64,000 nucleotides of DNA, taken from the NCBI RefSeq assembly GCF_054482595.1, contig NZ_CM137008.1; one strand, written 5' to 3'. Shown here piece after piece: positions 3,062 to 25,156 of the stretch. A program made the position numbers and the translations under genes. The first letter of the stretch is position 1. Each line of letters opens with the position of its first letter. Under the pieces are notes generated by a model, which did no database searches, was not told the DNA's origin, and saw only the letters and a program-made list of their open reading frames with translations.

Positions 3062-5296
3062 ATGGTTGCGGTAAGAAGTGCACATATCAATAAGGCTGGT
3101 GAATTTGATCCGGAAAAATGGATCGCAAGTCTGGGTATTACCAGCCAGAAGTCGTGTGAGTGCTTAGCCGAAACCTGGGCGTATTGTCTGCAACAGACGC
3201 AGGGGCATCCGGATGCCAGTCTGTTATTGTGGCGTGGTGTTGAGATGGTGGAGATCCTCTCGACATTAAGTATGGACATTGACACGCTGCGGGCGGCGCT
3301 GCTGTTCCCTCTGGCTGATGCCAACGTAGTCAGCGAAGATGTGCTGCGTGAGAGCGTCGGTAAGTCGGTCGTTAACCTTATTCACGGCGTGCGTGATATG
3401 GCGGCGATCCGCCAGCTGAAAGCGACGCACACTGATTCTGTTTCCTCCGAACAGGTCGATAACGTTCGCCGGATGTTATTGGCGATGGTCGATGATTTTC
3501 GCTGCGTGGTCATCAAACTGGCGGAGCGTATTGCTCATCTGCGCGAAGTAAAAGATGCGCCGGAAGATGAACGCGTACTGGCGGCAAAAGAGTGCACCAA
3601 TATCTACGCGCCGTTGGCGAACCGTCTTGGGATTGGGCAACTGAAATGGGAGCTGGAAGATTACTGCTTCCGTTATCTCCACCCGACCGAATACAAACGC
3701 ATCGCAAAACTGCTGCATGAACGCCGTCTCGACCGCGAACACTATATCGAAGAGTTTGTCGGCCATCTGCGCGCTGAGATGAAAGCTGAAGGCGTTAAAG
3801 CTGAAGTGTATGGTCGTCCGAAACACATCTACAGTATCTGGCGCAAAATGCAGAAAAAGAACCTCGCCTTCGATGAGCTGTTTGATGTGCGTGCGGTACG
3901 TATTGTCGCCGAGCGTTTACAGGATTGTTATGCCGCACTGGGGATAGTGCACACTCACTATCGCCACCTGCCGGATGAGTTTGACGATTATGTCGCTAAC
4001 CCGAAACCAAACGGTTATCAGTCTATTCATACCGTGGTTCTGGGGCCAGGTGGCAAAACCGTTGAGATCCAAATCCGCACCAAACAGATGCATGAAGATG
4101 CAGAGTTGGGTGTTGCTGCGCACTGGAAATATAAAGAGGGCGCGGCAGCTGGCGGCGCACGTTCGGGACATGAAGACCGGATTGCCTGGCTGCGTAAACT
4201 GATTGCGTGGCAGGAAGAGATGGCTGATTCCGGCGAAATGCTCGACGAAGTACGCAGCCAGGTCTTTGACGACCGGGTGTATGTCTTTACGCCGAAAGGT
4301 GATGTCGTTGATTTGCCTGCGGGATCAACGCCGCTGGACTTCGCTTACCACATCCACAGTGATGTCGGACACCGCTGCATCGGGGCAAAAATTGGCGGGC
4401 GCATTGTGCCGTTCACCTACCAGCTGCAGATGGGCGACCAGATTGAAATTATCACCCAGAAACAGCCGAACCCCAGCCGTGACTGGTTAAACCCAAACCT
4501 CGGTTACGTCACAACCAGCCGTGGGCGTTCGAAAATTCACGCCTGGTTCCGTAAACAGGACCGTGACAAAAACATTCTGGCTGGGCGGCAAATCCTTGAC
4601 GACGAGCTGGAACATCTGGGGATCAGCCTGAAAGAAGCAGAAAAACATCTGCTGCCGCGTTACAACTTTAATGATGTCGACGAGTTGCTGGCGGCGATTG
4701 GTGGCGGGGATATCCGTCTCAATCAGATGGTGAACTTCCTGCAATCGCAATTTAATAAGCCGAGTGCCGAAGAGCAGGACGCCGCCGCGCTGAAGCAACT
4801 TCAGCAAAAAAGCTACACGCCGCAAAACCGCAGTAAAGATAACGGTCGCGTGGTGGTCGAAGGTGTTGGCAACCTGATGCACCACATCGCGCGCTGCTGC
4901 CAGCCGATTCCTGGAGATGAGATTGTCGGCTTCATTACCCAGGGGCGCGGTATTTCAGTACACCGCGCCGATTGCGAACAACTGGCGGAACTGCGCTCCC
5001 ATGCGCCAGAACGCATTGTTGACGCGGTATGGGGTGAGAGCTACTCCGCCGGATATTCGCTGGTGGTCCGCGTGGTGGCTAATGATCGTAGTGGGTTGTT
5101 ACGTGATATCACGACCATTCTCGCCAACGAGAAGGTGAACGTGCTTGGCGTTGCCAGCCGTAGCGACACCAAACAGCAACTGGCGACCATCGACATGACC
5201 ATTGAGATTTACAACCTGCAAGTGCTGGGGCGCGTGCTGGGTAAACTCAACCAGGTGCCGGATGTTATCGACGCGCGTCGGTTGCACGGGAGTTAG
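3062..5296 (+). CDS. relA: GTP pyrophosphokinase RelA ((p)ppGpp synthetase I)
   Basis: 744 aa ORF starting MVAVRSAHINKAGEFDPEKW; full-length RelA. Confidence 0.95.
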   Translation: MVAVRSAHINKAGEFDPEKWIASLGITSQKSCECLAETWAYCLQQTQGHPDASLLLWRGVEMVEILSTLSMDIDTLRAALLFPLADANVVSEDVLRESVGKSVVNLIHGVRDMAAIRQLKATHTDSVSSEQVDNVRRMLLAMVDDFRCVVIKLAERIAHLREVKDAPEDERVLAAKECTNIYAPLANRLGIGQLKWELEDYCFRYLHPTEYKRIAKLLHERRLDREHYIEEFVGHLRAEMKAEGVKAEVYGRPKHIYSIWRKMQKKNLAFDELFDVRAVRIVAERLQDCYAALGIVHTHYRHLPDEFDDYVANPKPNGYQSIHTVVLGPGGKTVEIQIRTKQMHEDAELGVAAHWKYKEGAAAGGARSGHEDRIAWLRKLIAWQEEMADSGEMLDEVRSQVFDDRVYVFTPKGDVVDLPAGSTPLDFAYHIHSDVGHRCIGAKIGGRIVPFTYQLQMGDQIEIITQKQPNPSRDWLNPNLGYVTTSRGRSKIHAWFRKQDRDKNILAGRQILDDELEHLGISLKEAEKHLLPRYNFNDVDELLAAIGGGDIRLNQMVNFLQSQFNKPSAEEQDAAALKQLQQKSYTPQNRSKDNGRVVVEGVGNLMHHIARCCQPIPGDEIVGFITQGRGISVHRADCEQLAELRSHAPERIVDAVWGESYSAGYSLVVRVVANDRSGLLRDITTILANEKVNVLGVASRSDTKQQLATIDMTIEIYNLQVLGRVLGKLNQVPDVIDARRLHGS

Positions 5297-7031: not shown

Positions 7032-8684
<1,653 letters not shown>

Positions 8685-15977: not shown

Positions 15978-17456
15978 TTACGCATTCGACCAGCTCTGGA
16001 TCGAATCCGCATTTCCCAATTCCCCATGCATCACTTCATACGATTTTTTCAGAATCACATCAGTATGTTTGGTTAGGTCTTTGAAAATGCCTTTATTCAT
16101 CGCGTCGTAGCGTTTGGCATTGCTCTCAATCGGTATAAAGATATCTTTCACGCGAACCATTTTATCGACAGCCGTTGCGTAATCCGGGTATAGCCCCAGA
16201 CCTACCGCTGTATTAATCGCTGCCCCCAGGCTTGCACAACCGTTAATGGCGTTACGTCGTGCCGGAAGGTTGAACACGTCGGCAAAAATCTGCATAAACA
16301 GATCGCTGTTCGAACCGCCGCCAGTAATGATTACATGCTTCGCAAAGTGATTCATTTCATTACACATATTGTCGTAATTGTTCTTCAGCGTCAGCGCCAC
16401 GCTTTCCAGTATCGAACGATATATCCATGCGTAATCCATGCTGGAATCAAAGCCGATCATAATCCCGCGTTTGTACGGTTCCCACGGATTGGTCAGCCAG
16501 TCCAGCACCGTCATCAGCCCATTACAGCCAGGTGGCACACTAGAGGCTTTCTTGTTGAGTAAATCTTCCGGTGAAAGATCCTGCGCCCTGGCATCCTGAA
16601 TTAACGACTCGCCTAACATGTCGCGCAGCCAGCTCACCGTCCACATGCCTTTGCGAATACCGTAACCTTCATACAGCAATGTTTGCGGAATAGAAGACAT
16701 AATCGGCCAGTACGCCACCGGATCTTTCGGCAAGGCTTTGCCGTTCATCATCAATGCGATGTAAGTGCCAAGAGAAATTACCGCAGTTTCATCATCCAGT
16801 AATCCGGCCCCCAGAGCTTCTACCGGTTTATCACTGGTGGTACAAACAACCGGCAGTCCTGCCGGGAAATGTGTCGCCAGTGCGGCTTGTGGTGTGATCT
16901 GTCCAAGGACGGTGCCAGGCATTTGCACATCAAACAGCATATGACGGGGGATATTAAACTTATCCATTACCGCAGCATCTTCACTCCATGCCCAGGTCTT
17001 ATAATCCACCGGCCACTGACCAAAATAGTTGGCGATATTGTCTTTAAACTCGCCGGTTAAGCGATGCGTCAGATAACCCGAAAAAGAGGTGACATAGGCC
17101 ACGTCAGGATTAGTGTGTTCGTAGGGACGCGTTACGCGTGCATCCTGCCAGCTAATCAATGGCGCAGCTGGCGTGCCATCGGCTTTCAATAACGCACGGC
17201 AGCAACGGATGGATCCCAGACCAATACCGACAATATCTTCTTTATTCCCGGCAAACTGACTCATCAAATCGTGACCGGCAAAACATAATGATGCCCATAA
17301 ATCGTCGTCAGGATGTTCTGCGGTATCGGCATCTGGCGTGTGCATCGGCTGCAATAAACCTTTGCCTTCGCAAACCACGTTACCTTCCAGATCGTACATC
17401 ACCACTTTTGTGCTCTGACTTCCGCCATCAATCCCTATGATGTATTTCTTCGACAT
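15978..17456 (-). CDS. ygcE: FGGY-family carbohydrate kinase YgcE
   Basis: 492 aa ORF MSKKYIIGIDGGSQSTKVVMYDLEGNVV. Confidence 0.9.
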   Translation of the reverse strand: MSKKYIIGIDGGSQSTKVVMYDLEGNVVCEGKGLLQPMHTPDADTAEHPDDDLWASLCFAGHDLMSQFAGNKEDIVGIGLGSIRCCRALLKADGTPAAPLISWQDARVTRPYEHTNPDVAYVTSFSGYLTHRLTGEFKDNIANYFGQWPVDYKTWAWSEDAAVMDKFNIPRHMLFDVQMPGTVLGQITPQAALATHFPAGLPVVCTTSDKPVEALGAGLLDDETAVISLGTYIALMMNGKALPKDPVAYWPIMSSIPQTLLYEGYGIRKGMWTVSWLRDMLGESLIQDARAQDLSPEDLLNKKASSVPPGCNGLMTVLDWLTNPWEPYKRGIMIGFDSSMDYAWIYRSILESVALTLKNNYDNMCNEMNHFAKHVIITGGGSNSDLFMQIFADVFNLPARRNAINGCASLGAAINTAVGLGLYPDYATAVDKMVRVKDIFIPIESNAKRYDAMNKGIFKDLTKHTDVILKKSYEVMHGELGNADSIQSWSNA

Positions 17457-17482
17457 GATTTTTCTCCTGTAATTTTCCTGGC

Positions 17483-18760
17483 TTACTTGCTGCTAGCCAT
17501 TGCGGGGGCGCTATCAGCAGTACGAATTTTTTGGAACAGCAAAAAGGTAAAGACAATCACCATGGCAAGCGCCGCCATGCCCATCAGCCACATATTGCGG
17601 TAGGCTTCTGCTGCGGGCAGGGTGTCTTGCCAGTGGCCGATAATTGGGTAAACGAAGACATCCGGCAGGAATCCAATCACCGAGCAAATACCTACCGTGG
17701 TGCCCATAATGTAAGACGGTGTTCTCGCTTCGCCAGGGCAGGCCCAGTACAGCCCGCGTGAGGCGTAACAGGTGAATCCCAGCAGTAAAATCAGGCCAAT
17801 CCCCATCGCGACCGATTGCGGGTTAGAGTTCGTGACGAGCAGGGCAGTTAACGCCAGCAGGCCGAGTACGGAAAGGATTTGGATCACGCGGGTAGGGGAT
17901 TTCACTTTGCTGTAGGTGGTGATTATGCCGCCAAGTGGGCCGCACAGCGCGCGGAAGATTTTGTTGATCACAATCCCCATGTAGCTCGCCGCCACCAGCG
18001 ACATGCCGTACATTTCGGTCAGATAGTTGGTGGAGTAACTCAGAATGGCGTAGATGGTGAAGACACCAAAAATCACCATGCTGCAATACCAGGTGGTACT
18101 GATACGCAAAACGGCCAGGATATCGCTAAGCTGGAATGACTGTTTTTCTTCGTTATTGGCACTGCGCAGGTTGTTGTTATCGCTAACAAAAAACCAGCAC
18201 AGAAGCCCCAACAAGATGTAAACCACACTGTAGATGATAATGACCGTTTTCAGGCTGGCGCTGTCATCCGGTGCAAAGCGAGAAAAGACCCACATGGTAA
18301 ACACCGCCAGCGACATTACACCGACGCCGCGCAGCCCTTCCATCCAGCCCATAATTTTCCCTTGCTCGCTATGATCGCCAAGCAACGATGCGGCTTTAAT
18401 CGACACCGACCACAGCATTAAAATCGTCGTTATCGCAAAGGCGACCTGAATACAGAGCATTACCCACAGCGGTGGATACGTTGCCATTAACAGACCCAGT
18501 AATCCGGTAATGATCATCGCGGAAGTAATCATTTTGCGATGTGAGAATTTATCAGCAATAACGCCGCTGGGGGCATAAAGAATAATAGCTGCAATACCAA
18601 AGGTACTCATTATTAAACCTATCTCGGTATTGCTGAATCCCATAAATTTCGCCATGGGAATTTGATAAATATAACGTAAATAAGCCAGGTCGAAACTAAC
18701 GCCGCCGCTAAAACTAATTATCGCGAGGGTTATCCAACGGCGATATGAGTTGTGTTGCAT
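17483..18760 (-). CDS. yqcE: MFS transporter YqcE
   Basis: 425 aa ORF, strongly hydrophobic, about 12 predicted TM helices; co-oriented upstream of ygcE. Confidence 0.88.
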   Translation of the reverse strand: MQHNSYRRWITLAIISFSGGVSFDLAYLRYIYQIPMAKFMGFSNTEIGLIMSTFGIAAIILYAPSGVIADKFSHRKMITSAMIITGLLGLLMATYPPLWVMLCIQVAFAITTILMLWSVSIKAASLLGDHSEQGKIMGWMEGLRGVGVMSLAVFTMWVFSRFAPDDSASLKTVIIIYSVVYILLGLLCWFFVSDNNNLRSANNEEKQSFQLSDILAVLRISTTWYCSMVIFGVFTIYAILSYSTNYLTEMYGMSLVAASYMGIVINKIFRALCGPLGGIITTYSKVKSPTRVIQILSVLGLLALTALLVTNSNPQSVAMGIGLILLLGFTCYASRGLYWACPGEARTPSYIMGTTVGICSVIGFLPDVFVYPIIGHWQDTLPAAEAYRNMWLMGMAALAMVIVFTFLLFQKIRTADSAPAMASSK

Positions 18761-19006
18761 ATCGTATTCCCATTTGTAATAGACAAAAAAAAGAGAAAAG
18801 TAAGCCGCCCTTTCAGGTGGATTACTTTTCTCAGGTCTCTAGTAATTGAAATAATAAATAACATGGAAAGCAGAGGTGTTGTGTGAGAGTAATCACGCTT
18901 CTGCTTTTTAAAACTATTTGATAATGCGAATATCACACTGTGATTACGATCACATTAGCAGTTATGCCCTTATGCTAAAAATTATCTCCAGTTACCAGAG
19001 ATAATG

Positions 19007-19054
19007 AGAAAGGTAACTTCCCTCTCGCGGGGGAAGTTACCTTTCTTTTTTTTT
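19007..19054 (+). terminator. Intrinsic terminator-like hairpin in ygcW 5' leader (candidate attenuator)
   Basis: 18-bp stem 19007-19024 / 19029-19046 (one G-U), 4-nt loop tcgc, then 8 T; ends 24 nt before ygcW ATG. Confidence 0.6.
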
Positions 19055-19078
19055 GCCTTACGGAAATTGGAGCTAACT

Positions 19079-19864
19079 ATGTCAATCGAATCTCTCAATG
19101 CGTTCTCAATGGATTTTTTCTCCCTGAAAGGTAAAACCGCAATTGTTACCGGCGGGAATAGCGGTTTAGGCCAGGCATTTGCCATGGCGTTGGCCAAAGC
19201 AGGCGCAAATGTCTTTATTCCTAGCTTCGTCAAAGATAACGGCGAAACAAAGGAAATGATTGAAAAACAGGGTGTTGAAGTTGATTTTATGCAGGTGGAT
19301 ATCACCGCAGAAGGCGCGCCGCAGAAGATTATCGCTGCTTGCTGTGAGCGTTTCGGAACAGTTGATATTCTGGTTAACAATGCCGGTATTTGTAAGCTGA
19401 ATAAGGTGCTGGACTTTGGTCGAGCCGACTGGGACCCGATGATTGATGTGAACCTGACCGCCGCATTCGAGTTAAGCTACGAAGCGGCAAAAATTATGAT
19501 CCCGCAGAAAAGCGGTAAAATTATTAATATCTGTTCATTGTTCTCTTACTTAGGTGGACAATGGTCACCTGCATATTCTGCCACTAAACATGCTCTTGCC
19601 GGATTCACCAAAGCTTATTGTGATGAACTAGGTCAATATAATATTCAGGTAAATGGTATCGCCCCTGGCTATTATGCAACAGATATTACGCTGGCGACAC
19701 GCAGTAATCCAGAAACCAATCAGCGCGTTCTTGATCATATTCCGGCAAACCGTTGGGGCGATACTCAGGATTTAATGGGCGCAGCCGTGTTTCTCGCAAG
19801 TCAGGCATCGAATTATGTCAACGGGCATTTATTAGTGGTCGATGGCGGTTATTTAGTGCGCTAA
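19079..19864 (+). CDS. ygcW: Short-chain dehydrogenase/reductase YgcW
   Basis: Start MSIESLNAF at 19079 with GGAG 8 nt upstream; TGGNSGLG Rossmann motif; ORF-track start 19004 is an in-frame upstream extension through the hairpin. Confidence 0.9.
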   Translation: MSIESLNAFSMDFFSLKGKTAIVTGGNSGLGQAFAMALAKAGANVFIPSFVKDNGETKEMIEKQGVEVDFMQVDITAEGAPQKIIAACCERFGTVDILVNNAGICKLNKVLDFGRADWDPMIDVNLTAAFELSYEAAKIMIPQKSGKIINICSLFSYLGGQWSPAYSATKHALAGFTKAYCDELGQYNIQVNGIAPGYYATDITLATRSNPETNQRVLDHIPANRWGDTQDLMGAAVFLASQASNYVNGHLLVVDGGYLVR

Positions 19865-19933
19865 CCCATAACGGTGGTTTCTGTTTTCTCTTATTAATGA
19901 TTATTCCATTTTTATTATCAGGAAGGAATTACT

Positions 19934-21388
19934 ATGTCTTTATCTCGCGCAGCGATTGTCGACCAGCTAAAGGAAATTGTTGGTGCAGATCGCGTAATTA
20001 CCGATGAAACAGTATTAAAGAAGAACAGTATTGACCGTTTTCGTAAATTTCCGGATATTCATGGCATTTATACTTTGCCGATTCCGGCAGCGGTCGTAAA
20101 ACTCGGTTCCACAGAACAAGTCTCCCGTGTGCTGAATTTTATGAATGCGCACAAAATTAACGGTGTGCCGCGTACCGGTGCTTCCGCCACCGAAGGTGGG
20201 CTGGAAACTGTTGTAGAAAACTCGGTGGTGCTCGACGGCTCCGCCATGAATCAAATCATTAATATTGATATTGAGAATATGCAGGCGACGGCGCAATGTG
20301 GCGTTCCCCTGGAAGTGCTGGAAAACGCGTTGCGTGAAAAAGGTTACACCACGGGGCATTCTCCGCAGTCAAAGCCGCTGGCGCAGATGGGCGGCCTGGT
20401 AGCAACCCGCAGTATCGGGCAGTTCTCCACACTCTACGGCGCAATCGAAGATATGGTCGTTGGTCTGGAAGCAGTATTGGCTGATGGCACCGTCACACGC
20501 ATTAAAAACGTGCCACGCCGCGCGGCTGGCCCGGACATTCGTCACATCATCATCGGCAACGAAGGTGCATTGTGCTATATCACTGAAGTAACAGTGAAAA
20601 TCTTTAAATTCACCCCGAAAAACAACCTCTTCTACGGCTATATCCTGGAAGACATGAAAACCGGCTTCAACATCCTGCGTGAAATCATGGTGGAAGGGTA
20701 TCGTCCGTCGATCGCTCGTTTGTATGACGCTGAAGATGGCACCCAACACTTCACCCATTTTGCCGACGGAAAATGTGTGCTGATCTTTATGGCTGAAGGT
20801 AACCCTCGCATTGCGAAGGCGACGGGCGAAGGGATTGCGGAAATCGTTGCCCGCTACCCGCAGTGCCAGCGCGTGGACAGCAAACTGATCGAAACCTGGT
20901 TTAACAACCTGAACTGGGGACCGGATAAAGTGGCTGCCGAACGTGTGCAAATCCTCAAAACCGGCAACATGGGCTTTACCACTGAAGTGTCCGGCTGCTG
21001 GAGCTGCATCCACGAAATCTACGAAAGCGTTATTAACCGTATTCGTATCGAGTTCCCGCACGCCGACGACATCACTATGCTGGGTGGTCACTCCTCTCAT
21101 AGCTATCAGAACGGCACCAACATGTACTTCGTCTACGACTACAACGTTGTCAACTGTAAGCCGGAAGAGGAAATCGACAAGTACCACAATCCGCTCAACA
21201 AAATCATCTGCGAAGAAACCATTCGCCTCGGCGGTTCGATGGTGCACCACCACGGCATTGGTAAACATCGCGTTCACTGGAGCAAGCTGGAACACGGCAG
21301 CGCGTGGGCGTTGCTGGAAGGGCTGAAAAAGCAATTCGATCCTAACGGCATTATGAATACGGGTACTATCTATCCGATTGAAAAATAA
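19934..21388 (+). CDS. ygcU: FAD-linked oxidase YgcU
   Basis: 484 aa ORF MSLSRAAIVDQLKEIVGADRVITDETVLKKNSIDRF. Confidence 0.9.
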   Translation: MSLSRAAIVDQLKEIVGADRVITDETVLKKNSIDRFRKFPDIHGIYTLPIPAAVVKLGSTEQVSRVLNFMNAHKINGVPRTGASATEGGLETVVENSVVLDGSAMNQIINIDIENMQATAQCGVPLEVLENALREKGYTTGHSPQSKPLAQMGGLVATRSIGQFSTLYGAIEDMVVGLEAVLADGTVTRIKNVPRRAAGPDIRHIIIGNEGALCYITEVTVKIFKFTPKNNLFYGYILEDMKTGFNILREIMVEGYRPSIARLYDAEDGTQHFTHFADGKCVLIFMAEGNPRIAKATGEGIAEIVARYPQCQRVDSKLIETWFNNLNWGPDKVAAERVQILKTGNMGFTTEVSGCWSCIHEIYESVINRIRIEFPHADDITMLGGHSSHSYQNGTNMYFVYDYNVVNCKPEEEIDKYHNPLNKIICEETIRLGGSMVHHHGIGKHRVHWSKLEHGSAWALLEGLKKQFDPNGIMNTGTIYPIEK

Positions 21389-24580: not shown

Positions 24581-25156
24581 TCAAAGCAATTTTTTCGCTA
24601 ACGTCCAGACTCCGGTATTCGTGGTGGAAAGCGCCACGACACCCGCGTTAATCGCATTACGCGCATCTTCTTCATCGCATACCAGCCCGCCAGCAATCAG
24701 CGGTTGGCGGATTTTTTCCGTCACCCAGCCCAGCACTTTGGGCATGCAGCCTGGCAGGATCTCAATACAATCCGGATTCGATTGCGCAACTTGCTTATCA
24801 ATGTTGTGAAACGAAATCGAATCAACAATAAACAGGCGATGAATACAGAAAAAACCTTCCGCTCTTGCCGCTTTCAACATTGAGGCTTTGGTACTGATAA
24901 TGCCGTCCGCCTCGGTCACCAGTTTCAAAAACTGAATCACGACTTCTTTATTTGACGCGCCTTCCAGCAAATCAACATGAATAAAAGCATATTTCCCGGC
25001 GTTCTTAATCTTTTTAACGATATTACTGATGGTGCAGATATTGCCGTACAACACGGAAATAAACTGGCATTCAGAGTCGATTGCCAGTTGTAGGCTGGCA
25101 TTATCTTTAACGGCAGCAATCACCGGATTCTGGCGGAGCAGGTGTAAGAGGGGCAT
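24581..25156 (-). CDS. ygcP: GlpP-family antiterminator-like protein YgcP
   Basis: 191 aa ORF MPLLHLLRQNPVIAAVKDNASLQLAIDSECQFISVLYGNI; GlpP-family assignment recalled from annotation, not derived here. Confidence 0.8.
   Translation of the reverse strand: MPLLHLLRQNPVIAAVKDNASLQLAIDSECQFISVLYGNICTISNIVKKIKNAGKYAFIHVDLLEGASNKEVVIQFLKLVTEADGIISTKASMLKAARAEGFFCIHRLFIVDSISFHNIDKQVAQSNPDCIEILPGCMPKVLGWVTEKIRQPLIAGGLVCDEEDARNAINAGVVALSTTNTGVWTLAKKLL

Follow-up and report, generated by a model that had tools for sequence, protein, structure and literature searches.

Twin terminator leaders between yqcE and ygcW of Escherichia coli, candidates for antitermination by the GlpP-family protein YgcP

Why should a strong transcription terminator be placed immediately before the start codon of a gene? 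This question is raised by a stretch of 64,000 nucleotides of an Escherichia coli chromosome (hereafter, the window), in which a hairpin followed by a run of T residues is found within the yqcE/ygcW intergenic region. The 441 bases around this hairpin are 100% identical to those of E. coli Combat11I9 and have been found in 5,067 of 5,426 complete E. coli genomes. About 7% of the complete genomes have none of the intergenic region, which indicates that the ygc cluster is dispensable and sometimes deleted; strain PK8277 (NZ_CP080133.1, 1026933-1026976) retains just 44 nt of it, corresponding to window positions 18870-18913. The gene order is that of K-12, ygcE-yqcE / ygcW-ygcU-ygcS-ygcR-ygcQ / ygcP-ygcO-ygcN, and K-12 coordinates equal 2919352 minus the window coordinate (conversion verified). 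To the right of the hairpin lies ygcW (19079-19864, plus strand), which codes for an SDR protein and is the first gene of the ygcW-ygcU-ygcS-ygcR-ygcQ transcription unit; to the left lies yqcE (17483-18760, minus strand), coding for an MFS transporter and being the first gene of yqcE-ygcE. The ten-gene ygc/yqc cluster of E. coli K-12 is still without an assigned function. Its products include an SDR, an FGGY kinase (YgcE), an FAD oxidase with ETF, and MFS transporters, and in a scan of YgcP, YgcW, YgcU, YgcE, and YqcE against Pfam or NCBIfam all the cluster enzymes remained below the curated NCBIfam cut-offs. A literature search on ygcP and ygcW returned CRP, H-NS, and sigma-70 binding tables only, and no functional studies. 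The protein identity of YgcW ranges from 70 to 99% across several phyla; between E. coli (window 19079-19864) and Firmicutes, Actinomycetota, and Desulfobacterota (loci L052-L081) it is 70-80%, which is unusually high, and in these loci ygcW always adjoins ygcE- and ygcU-like genes.

The product of ygcP (24581-25156, minus strand) suggests where an answer may lie. A reading made from the sequence only had named YgcP as a GlpP-family antiterminator-like protein, and had proposed that it prevents formation of the terminator before ygcW. The family assignment is correct: YgcP gives a full-length match to PF04309 (G3P_antiterm; E = 1.6e-62), and its RefSeq product name is 'putative anti-terminator regulatory protein'. 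The analysis described below leads us to propose that YgcP may act on two leaders, one on each side of the intergenic region.

Two leader terminators in a mirrored intergenic region

The intrinsic terminator of the ygcW leader occupies positions 19006-19054 of the plus strand, with stem arms at 19006-19024 and 19029-19047, a loop at 19025-19028, and a U run that extends to 19054. The sequence-only reading had described an 18-bp near-perfect stem; the hairpin and its tcgc loop are real, but the stem is in fact perfect, since RNAfold yields 19 contiguous pairs (18 Watson-Crick and one terminal G.U) closed by the loop UCGC. The free energy is -31 kcal/mol (z = -7.97), none of 200 shuffles folds as well, and a terminator scan recovers the same site. 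The T run (19046-19054) comprises nine residues, two of them inside the stem, and is separated by 24 nt (G19055 to 19078) from the ygcW ATG at 19079, so that the hairpin lies on the coding strand and at the distance from the gene that had been claimed. An open reading frame beginning at 19004 is a mere 5' extension of ygcW. In a Term-seq study (Adams et al., 2021; PMC7815308, supplementary files 1 and 3), an RNA 3' end has been reported at K-12 position 2900311(-), which maps to window position 19041, inside the hairpin. This end is represented by 40,640 reads in MG1655 grown in LB to OD 0.4, is classed as 'orphan' at 38 nt upstream of ygcW, has a Rho score of 0.50 (not a Rho region), scores 15.8 as an intrinsic terminator, and has no regulatory element recorded for it (PMC7815308). 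The hairpin thus appears to be a real early stop signal for transcription, and the attenuator layout suggested earlier, a strong hairpin plus a T run before ygcW, is backed by RNA 3' ends mapped inside it in vivo.

The ygcW leader terminator has a paralogue in the leader of yqcE, which had been overlooked in the earlier reading. The whole yqcE leader element (18785-18853, minus strand) is matched by a covariance model with 70 bits, and the whole ygcW element (18984-19054, plus strand) with 74 bits. Within the yqcE leader, positions 18832-18785 (minus strand) read GAGAAAAGUAAUCCACCUGAAAGGGCGGCUUACUUUUCUC and then U8, the terminator stem being at 18832-18793 and the U8 at 18792-18785; this terminator folds at about -20 kcal/mol, and the gap from U8 to the ATG at 18760 is of 24 nt, the same as for ygcW. 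A Term-seq 3' end is also present here, at 2900556(+) (window 18796), 36 nt upstream of yqcE, with an intrinsic score of 11.4, not Rho-dependent, and with no regulator recorded (PMC7815308). The presence of 3' ends in both leaders indicates that sense transcription enters both of them and stops there under non-inducing conditions. The two ends, at 19041 and 18796, fall 3-6 nt inside the terminator 3' arms and outside the U tract, which would reflect either exonuclease trimming through the A-U-rich base of the stem or a processing site. They fit exonuclease trimming, the end at 19041, which is five bases into the 3' arm, probably being that of a terminated RNA trimmed to the G+C-rich part of the stem, although such ends do not by themselves strictly prove termination.

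The entire yqcE-ygcW intergenic region (18761-19078) is an imperfect mirror duplication, whose halves align over about 160 nt, so that CRP site, extended -10, leader, and U run are all found twice. On the ygcW side, the CRP site TGTGATTACGATCACA (18939-18954) is a perfect site; it is bound by CRP in ChIP experiments in ETEC (PMC4287617) and has a Kd of 1.7 nM by Footprint-seq (PMC12871828). This site lies at about -42 from the predicted start of the ygcW leader (around 18989-18990), which would be preceded by the putative extended -10 TGcTAAAAAT (18973-18982, plus strand). On the yqcE side, a second CRP-like site TGTGAGAGTAATCACG (18882-18897), presumably functional, is located at about -42 from the predicted leader start, and a putative extended -10 TGtTATTTA is found at 18863-18855 (minus strand). 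The spacing suggests a class II arrangement at both promoters. A -10-like element is placed 6-9 nt upstream of AGUUAC in all the leaders, and it reads TATAAT in Firmicutes. The intergenic region is also listed as H-NS-bound. The promoter upstream of the hairpin that the attenuator proposal presupposed is therefore supported by a bound CRP site and a conserved extended -10 at the right distance.

A conserved leader element and its antiterminator helix

The conservation of the leader has been explored in YgcW relatives from 80 species, taken with 8-kb flanks, in which genes were mapped by tblastn and leaders were found by a terminator scan followed by a covariance model (R1). The leader consensus, 5'-AGUUACU-AGAGA-N3-4-GAGAAAAGUAACUUCC...terminator-U8, holds in 56/56 of the loci showing a leader, which belong to Enterobacterales and Firmicutes. 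The full pattern comprises a -10 box, 6-9 nt, and 5'-A(G/A)UUAC(U/C) (0-4 nt) AGAGA N3-4 GAGAAA(A/G)GU(A/G)A(C/U)UUCC ... GGAAG.UU(G/A)CUUUUCUC U8-9. In each Enterobacterales locus, R1 detects exactly two leaders, which face ygcW and yqcE, respectively; in each Firmicutes locus with ygcP it detects between one and three, placed before ygcW, ygcU, and a divergent unit. The ygcW and yqcE leaders are its sole two matches in the window, and no leader is found by R1 in the ygcW/ygcE/ygcU clusters that lack ygcP. Among the 80 loci, ygcP and the leader occur together in 53, ygcP alone in none, the leader alone in three, and neither in 24; that is, the leader is present in 53/53 loci carrying ygcP, as against 0/24 ygcW loci in the last group. 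The three leader-only cases correspond to two truncated contigs and to one genome with a ygcP homologue apparently on another contig. Outside Enterobacterales, the same four counts are 10/0/0/17 (Fisher p = 1e-7). Neither set of counts is corrected for phylogeny, and common ancestry of a single cluster variant may account for part of the co-occurrence. The proposed link between the leader and YgcP is strengthened by this co-occurrence and by the similar layout of the glp leaders discussed below.

The terminator itself shows covariation: 93% of the cells are paired, double changes occur at 11 of 17 pairs, and none of 500 shuffles reaches this level. G.U pairs are frequent in the orthologues (U.G 52 versus U-A 48 at one pair, G.U 27 at another), which points to selection on the sense-strand RNA and not on a DNA palindrome. 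Neither the unpaired AGAG nor the GAGAAA changes in any of 32 diverse leaders, in contrast with an upper stem that is free to vary. In fact, the terminator base GAGAAA:UUUCUC is unchanged from E. coli to Clostridia and, together with the invariant AGAG, this argues for a constraint beyond what termination needs.

The leader can also form a second helix. The 5' A(G/A)UUAC(U/C) of the leader is complementary to the (A/G)GUAA(C/U)U of the terminator 5' arm, and both can form a 6-7-bp helix that excludes the terminator. In the ygcW leader, the predicted antiterminator 5' strand AGUUACC (18990-18996, plus strand) pairs with the 3' strand GGUAACU (19012-19018), which is also part of the terminator 5' arm, in a hairpin of -6.1 kcal/mol. 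The loop between them (18997-19011) contains AGAGA (18997-19001), the spacer UAAU, and GAGAAA (19006-19011), and is the candidate recognition element for YgcP. In the yqcE leader (minus strand), the corresponding parts are the 5' strand AAUUACU (18847-18841), the 3' strand AGUAAU (18826-18821), and the purine boxes AGAGA (18840-18836) and GAGAAA (18832-18827). The pairing is AGUUACU:AGUAACU in most leaders, AGUUACC:GGUAACU on the ygcW side of E. coli, AAUUACU:AGUAAU(U/C) on its yqcE side as well as, independently, in seven of the Firmicutes copies, and AGUUGCC:GGCGACU in locus L025. Two pairs are variable (G-C 52 / A-U 34 and U-A 60 / C-G 24), and once the variable spacer is allowed for no mixed combinations are left at either. 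At least six of the seven positions are paired in 101 of 103 distinct leaders, and the mean pairing is 6.59, versus 6.18 +/- 0.04 with permuted arms. An alternative fold overlapping the terminator 5' arm, for which the sequence-only reading had advised a search, is thus found, with compensatory covariation across the 103 distinct leaders. Folded alone, the antiterminator hairpins reach -1.4 to -6.1 kcal/mol and the terminators -20 to -31 kcal/mol; a weak antiterminator facing a strong terminator implies that the default state is 'off' and that a stabilising factor is needed for read-through.

A scan of positions 17000-21000 against Rfam 15, with E values up to 10, gave chance matches only (the best with 24 bits versus a gathering score of 90), so that the leader is a candidate new RNA family; in a literature search, no paper describing the element was found. 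A dispersed palindromic repeat of the REP/ERIC type has been discarded, given the two model matches in the 64 kb of the window and a blastn count of the palindrome with a median of two and a maximum of four places per E. coli genome, none on plasmids; this count mixes the yqcE copy with the palindrome matching its own reverse strand, and has been used solely against the dispersed-repeat reading.

Several loci deviate from the common arrangement. In Limnobaculum allomyrinae and Budvicia, both hairpins of one locus are identical (L030:7573-7646 and 7894-7967; L074:7614-7687 and 7894-7967), which points to gene conversion having taken place between these inverted copies. L. eriocheiris (L031:3080-3167) has an intergenic region of only 130 nt, with one hairpin that is flanked by A9 and T9 and gives a score on either strand; both promoters seem to have been lost here when the region collapsed by recombination. 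The ygcU leaders of Firmicutes form a structural sub-variant, with an extra hairpin of about 20 nt in the terminator loop (L054:10526-10609, L059:8711-8797, L061:10477-10562, L065:10394-10479). In a Buttiauxella MAG, a degenerate leader (L049:7908-7974, 34.8 bits) precedes a 79%-identical ygcW paralogue, at a locus without ygcP and other ygc genes. Finally, ygc loci of the enterobacterial type, with YgcW identities of 93-99%, are filed under unrelated phyla (L016, 'Chryseobacterium sp. 18061'; L048, 'Planctomycetota MAG'; L018; L044), and look like contamination or mis-binned contigs, not like transfer.

Proposed mechanism, rival explanations, and significance

The reading that we favour, with a probability of roughly 0.7, is that two CRP-driven divergent operons are subject to YgcP-dependent antitermination in a system of the GlpP kind; the ygcW hairpin would supply the terminator half in an attenuator under protein control, and yqcE-ygcE would be preceded by its equivalent. 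According to this model, cAMP-CRP would activate the two mirror-image promoters of the intergenic region, and each transcript would begin at or beside 5'-A(G/A)UUAC(C/U). In the default state, the strong terminators (-31 and about -20 kcal/mol, respectively) would form, and RNA polymerase would halt 24 nt before the start codon, as the 3' ends found in vivo indicate. Alternatively, as the covariation suggests, the 5' end of the transcript could pair with the first part of the terminator 5' arm to give a weak hairpin, whose loop of 14-15 nt would show the two invariant purine boxes, AGAGA and GAGAAA. Effector-loaded YgcP might bind this antiterminator and stabilise it, thus allowing read-through. 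The effector of GlpP being glycerol-3-phosphate, that of YgcP is by analogy probably the phosphorylated product of the FGGY kinase YgcE.

Other explanations have been considered. The AGAGA...GAGAAA-loop hairpin might act as a riboswitch, binding a pathway metabolite and stabilising the antiterminator on its own, with YgcP being an enzyme or an unrelated regulator. In its favour are an alternative fold that is conserved and whose unpaired nucleotides never vary, and the fact that RNA binding by YgcP is only predicted. However, the candidate aptamer would consist of a single helix of only about 29 nt, no Rfam family matches it, complete loci never show a leader without ygcP, and the like layout is found in glp leaders, for which GlpP control is experimentally established in B. 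subtilis; we therefore consider a protein-independent mechanism unlikely. The terminated RNA of about 50-65 nt might instead be the main product, a small RNA or sponge acting in trans, with read-through being incidental. The terminated species is abundant in LB, as the Term-seq reads attest, it ends in a stable hairpin plus U tail, which is the usual Hfq-binding architecture, and some 5' UTR fragments do act in trans (Adams et al., 2021; PMC7815308). Against this, there are two divergent copies placed exactly 24 nt before a start codon, the Firmicutes copies precede ygcW, ygcU, and transporter genes, and a covarying antiterminator would be purposeless in a stand-alone small RNA, all of which makes such a role quite improbable.

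Two further proposals concern the DNA and the coding potential of the region. The 42-bp palindrome, a long and perfect inverted repeat within a promoter region to which CRP and H-NS bind, could serve a dimeric transcription factor as its operator, or be one copy among many of a dispersed palindromic repeat. In many orthologues, however, the stem is kept by means of G.U pairs, which are possible only in RNA of the sense strand; a T run is present at just one end, RNA 3' ends have been mapped at the palindrome, and the sequence is not dispersed but limited to at most four places per E. coli genome. A role at the DNA level thus has very little to recommend it. Hardly credible is an attenuation mediated by ribosomes translating the ORF from the ATG at 19004. 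This ATG is in frame with ygcW, and AUGAGAAA recurs in many ygcW-side leaders, but neither the yqcE-side leaders (CCUGAGAAAAG, CGAAGAGAAAAG) nor the copies in Firmicutes have the AUG, and the ORF, which has neither a stop codon nor a leader peptide, just extends ygcW in the 5' direction.

Among the components of YgcP-dependent antitermination, the GlpP mechanism as a kind of regulation, the hint in the YgcP annotation, and the 3' ends in a public table are already known. What appears to be new is the twin leaders, the RNA element with its covarying antiterminator, its cross-phylum distribution and strict association with ygcP, and the control that the leader would exert on an orphan catabolic cluster of E. 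coli. To our knowledge, antitermination of the GlpP type has been shown experimentally solely for the glp genes of Firmicutes. If the model is right, E. coli has such a system, and two Term-seq 3' ends listed without a regulator become explained. An orphan sugar-utilisation cluster would also gain a testable regulator, and leader-reporter fusions would provide a direct screen for the pathway inducer, because read-through should be switched on only upon accumulation of the kinase product. In addition, the two purine boxes within a covarying hairpin would be a concrete, mutable recognition site for the poorly characterised GlpP family.

Comparison with GlpP and other antitermination systems

The GlpP system of B. 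subtilis offers the closest term of comparison. The 5' UTR of glpD alone renders foreign promoters glycerol-inducible, and this induction is lost without glpP (PMC9604022); GlpP bound to glycerol-3-phosphate has been described as binding the antiterminator (PMC7430163). The layout stemL-[RGAGA N2-4 GAGA(A)]-stemR is common to the B. subtilis glpD UTR and to seven leaders located beside glpP homologues, and in the glp leaders the right-hand strand and the second purine box continue into the terminator 5' arm. The antiterminator of the published B. subtilis glpD 5' UTR reads GGUC[CUGAGAUGAGGAGA]GACC, and those of the sampled loci read UUGGUC[GGAGACAAGGAGAA]GACCAA (L082 glpF), GGUC[AGAGAACUGGAGUA]GACC (L082 glpD), GGUU[ACGAGAUAUGAGAA]GACC (L094 glpD), and AGGUC[AGAGAAAAGAGAAA]GACCU (L095 glpK), with further glp leaders of like layout in L086, L089, and, twice, L090. 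In E. coli, the predicted counterparts are AGUUACC[AGAGAUAAUGAGAAA]GGUAACU for ygcW and AUUACU[AGAGACCUGAGAAA]AGUAAU for yqcE. Run on 75 kb, the model derived from the ygc leaders recovers the glpF leader of L082 (E = 0.011, boxes in register); five more glp leaders, at E = 0.3-9, are among its 27 weak matches. Conversely, a mini model (R2) built from seven canonical glp antiterminators misses the ygc leaders in the window, its best match (E = 2.5) being to unrelated sequence; this model holds too little information, and MAFFT aligned its boxes out of register. A hand-written descriptor, composed after both classes of leaders had been seen, finds just the two leaders in the window and seven sites in the 58 kb of glpP loci, versus about one in shuffles. 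The sequence likeness of the ygc leaders to canonical GlpP targets thus appears only weakly significant. The antiterminator stem GGUC:GACC is located in the glp leaders at L082:172-197 and 4301-4322, at about 2800-2850 on the minus strand of L094, and at L095:150-180. Beyond pairing, the sequence of the stem (GGUC:GACC versus GUUAC:GUAAC) may discriminate between paralogous proteins. In the case of the glpP homologues found in the context of an ABC transporter (L085) and of an Na/H antiporter (L092), no recognisable leader was seen, so that some PF04309 proteins come without an RNA element.

Other systems share the logic proposed for ygc with different components. In the BglG/SacY/LicT type, represented in E. 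coli by bgl, a protein-stabilised antiterminator also overlaps the leader terminator of a catabolic operon; as far as we know, this is the only well-known example of such logic in sugar catabolism of E. coli. These proteins, however, have a CAT-PRD fold, are controlled by PTS phosphorylation, and recognise a RAT element, and the CAT-PRD type was not found among YgcP, YgcW, YgcU, YgcE, and YqcE in the Pfam or NCBIfam scan. Another example is that of HutP and TRAP of B. subtilis, in which repeated purine-rich boxes (NAG or GAG triplets) decide between terminator and antiterminator (PMC7430163), as proposed here for the leaders of ygcW and yqcE. HutP and TRAP are unrelated ring-shaped oligomers that use a different number and spacing of boxes, and TRAP promotes termination.

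In both the GlpP and the ygc systems, a PF04309 protein is encoded with the regulon (glpD, glpFK, and glpTQ in B. subtilis), which is made up of several operons, each having a promoter-proximal intrinsic terminator in its 5' UTR; the beginning of the terminator 5' arm can be paired by a short strand located upstream, the antiterminator loop presents two GAGA-type purine boxes, and a catabolite control is placed on top (CcpA for glp, CRP for ygc). YgcP is about 33-40% identical to the glp-adjacent GlpP homologues sampled (P0163, P0181, P0191, P0196, P0205, P0219, and P0247). On the other hand, the ygc system would control genes for an SDR, an FGGY kinase, an FAD oxidase with ETF, and MFS transporters, and its effector is therefore presumably different; its antiterminator stem is GUUAC:GUAAC instead of GGUC:GACC, its host range includes Proteobacteria, and its two leaders form a mirror pair. 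We tentatively suggest, with somewhat less than even confidence, that YgcP and the twin leaders represent a second, effector-distinct GlpP-family regulon of Proteobacteria and Firmicutes, in which the two GAGA boxes would be read in a 5'-terminal antiterminator loop, the stem sequence would serve as a specificity code that avoids cross-talk with glp, and the effector would be a phosphorylated catabolic intermediate.
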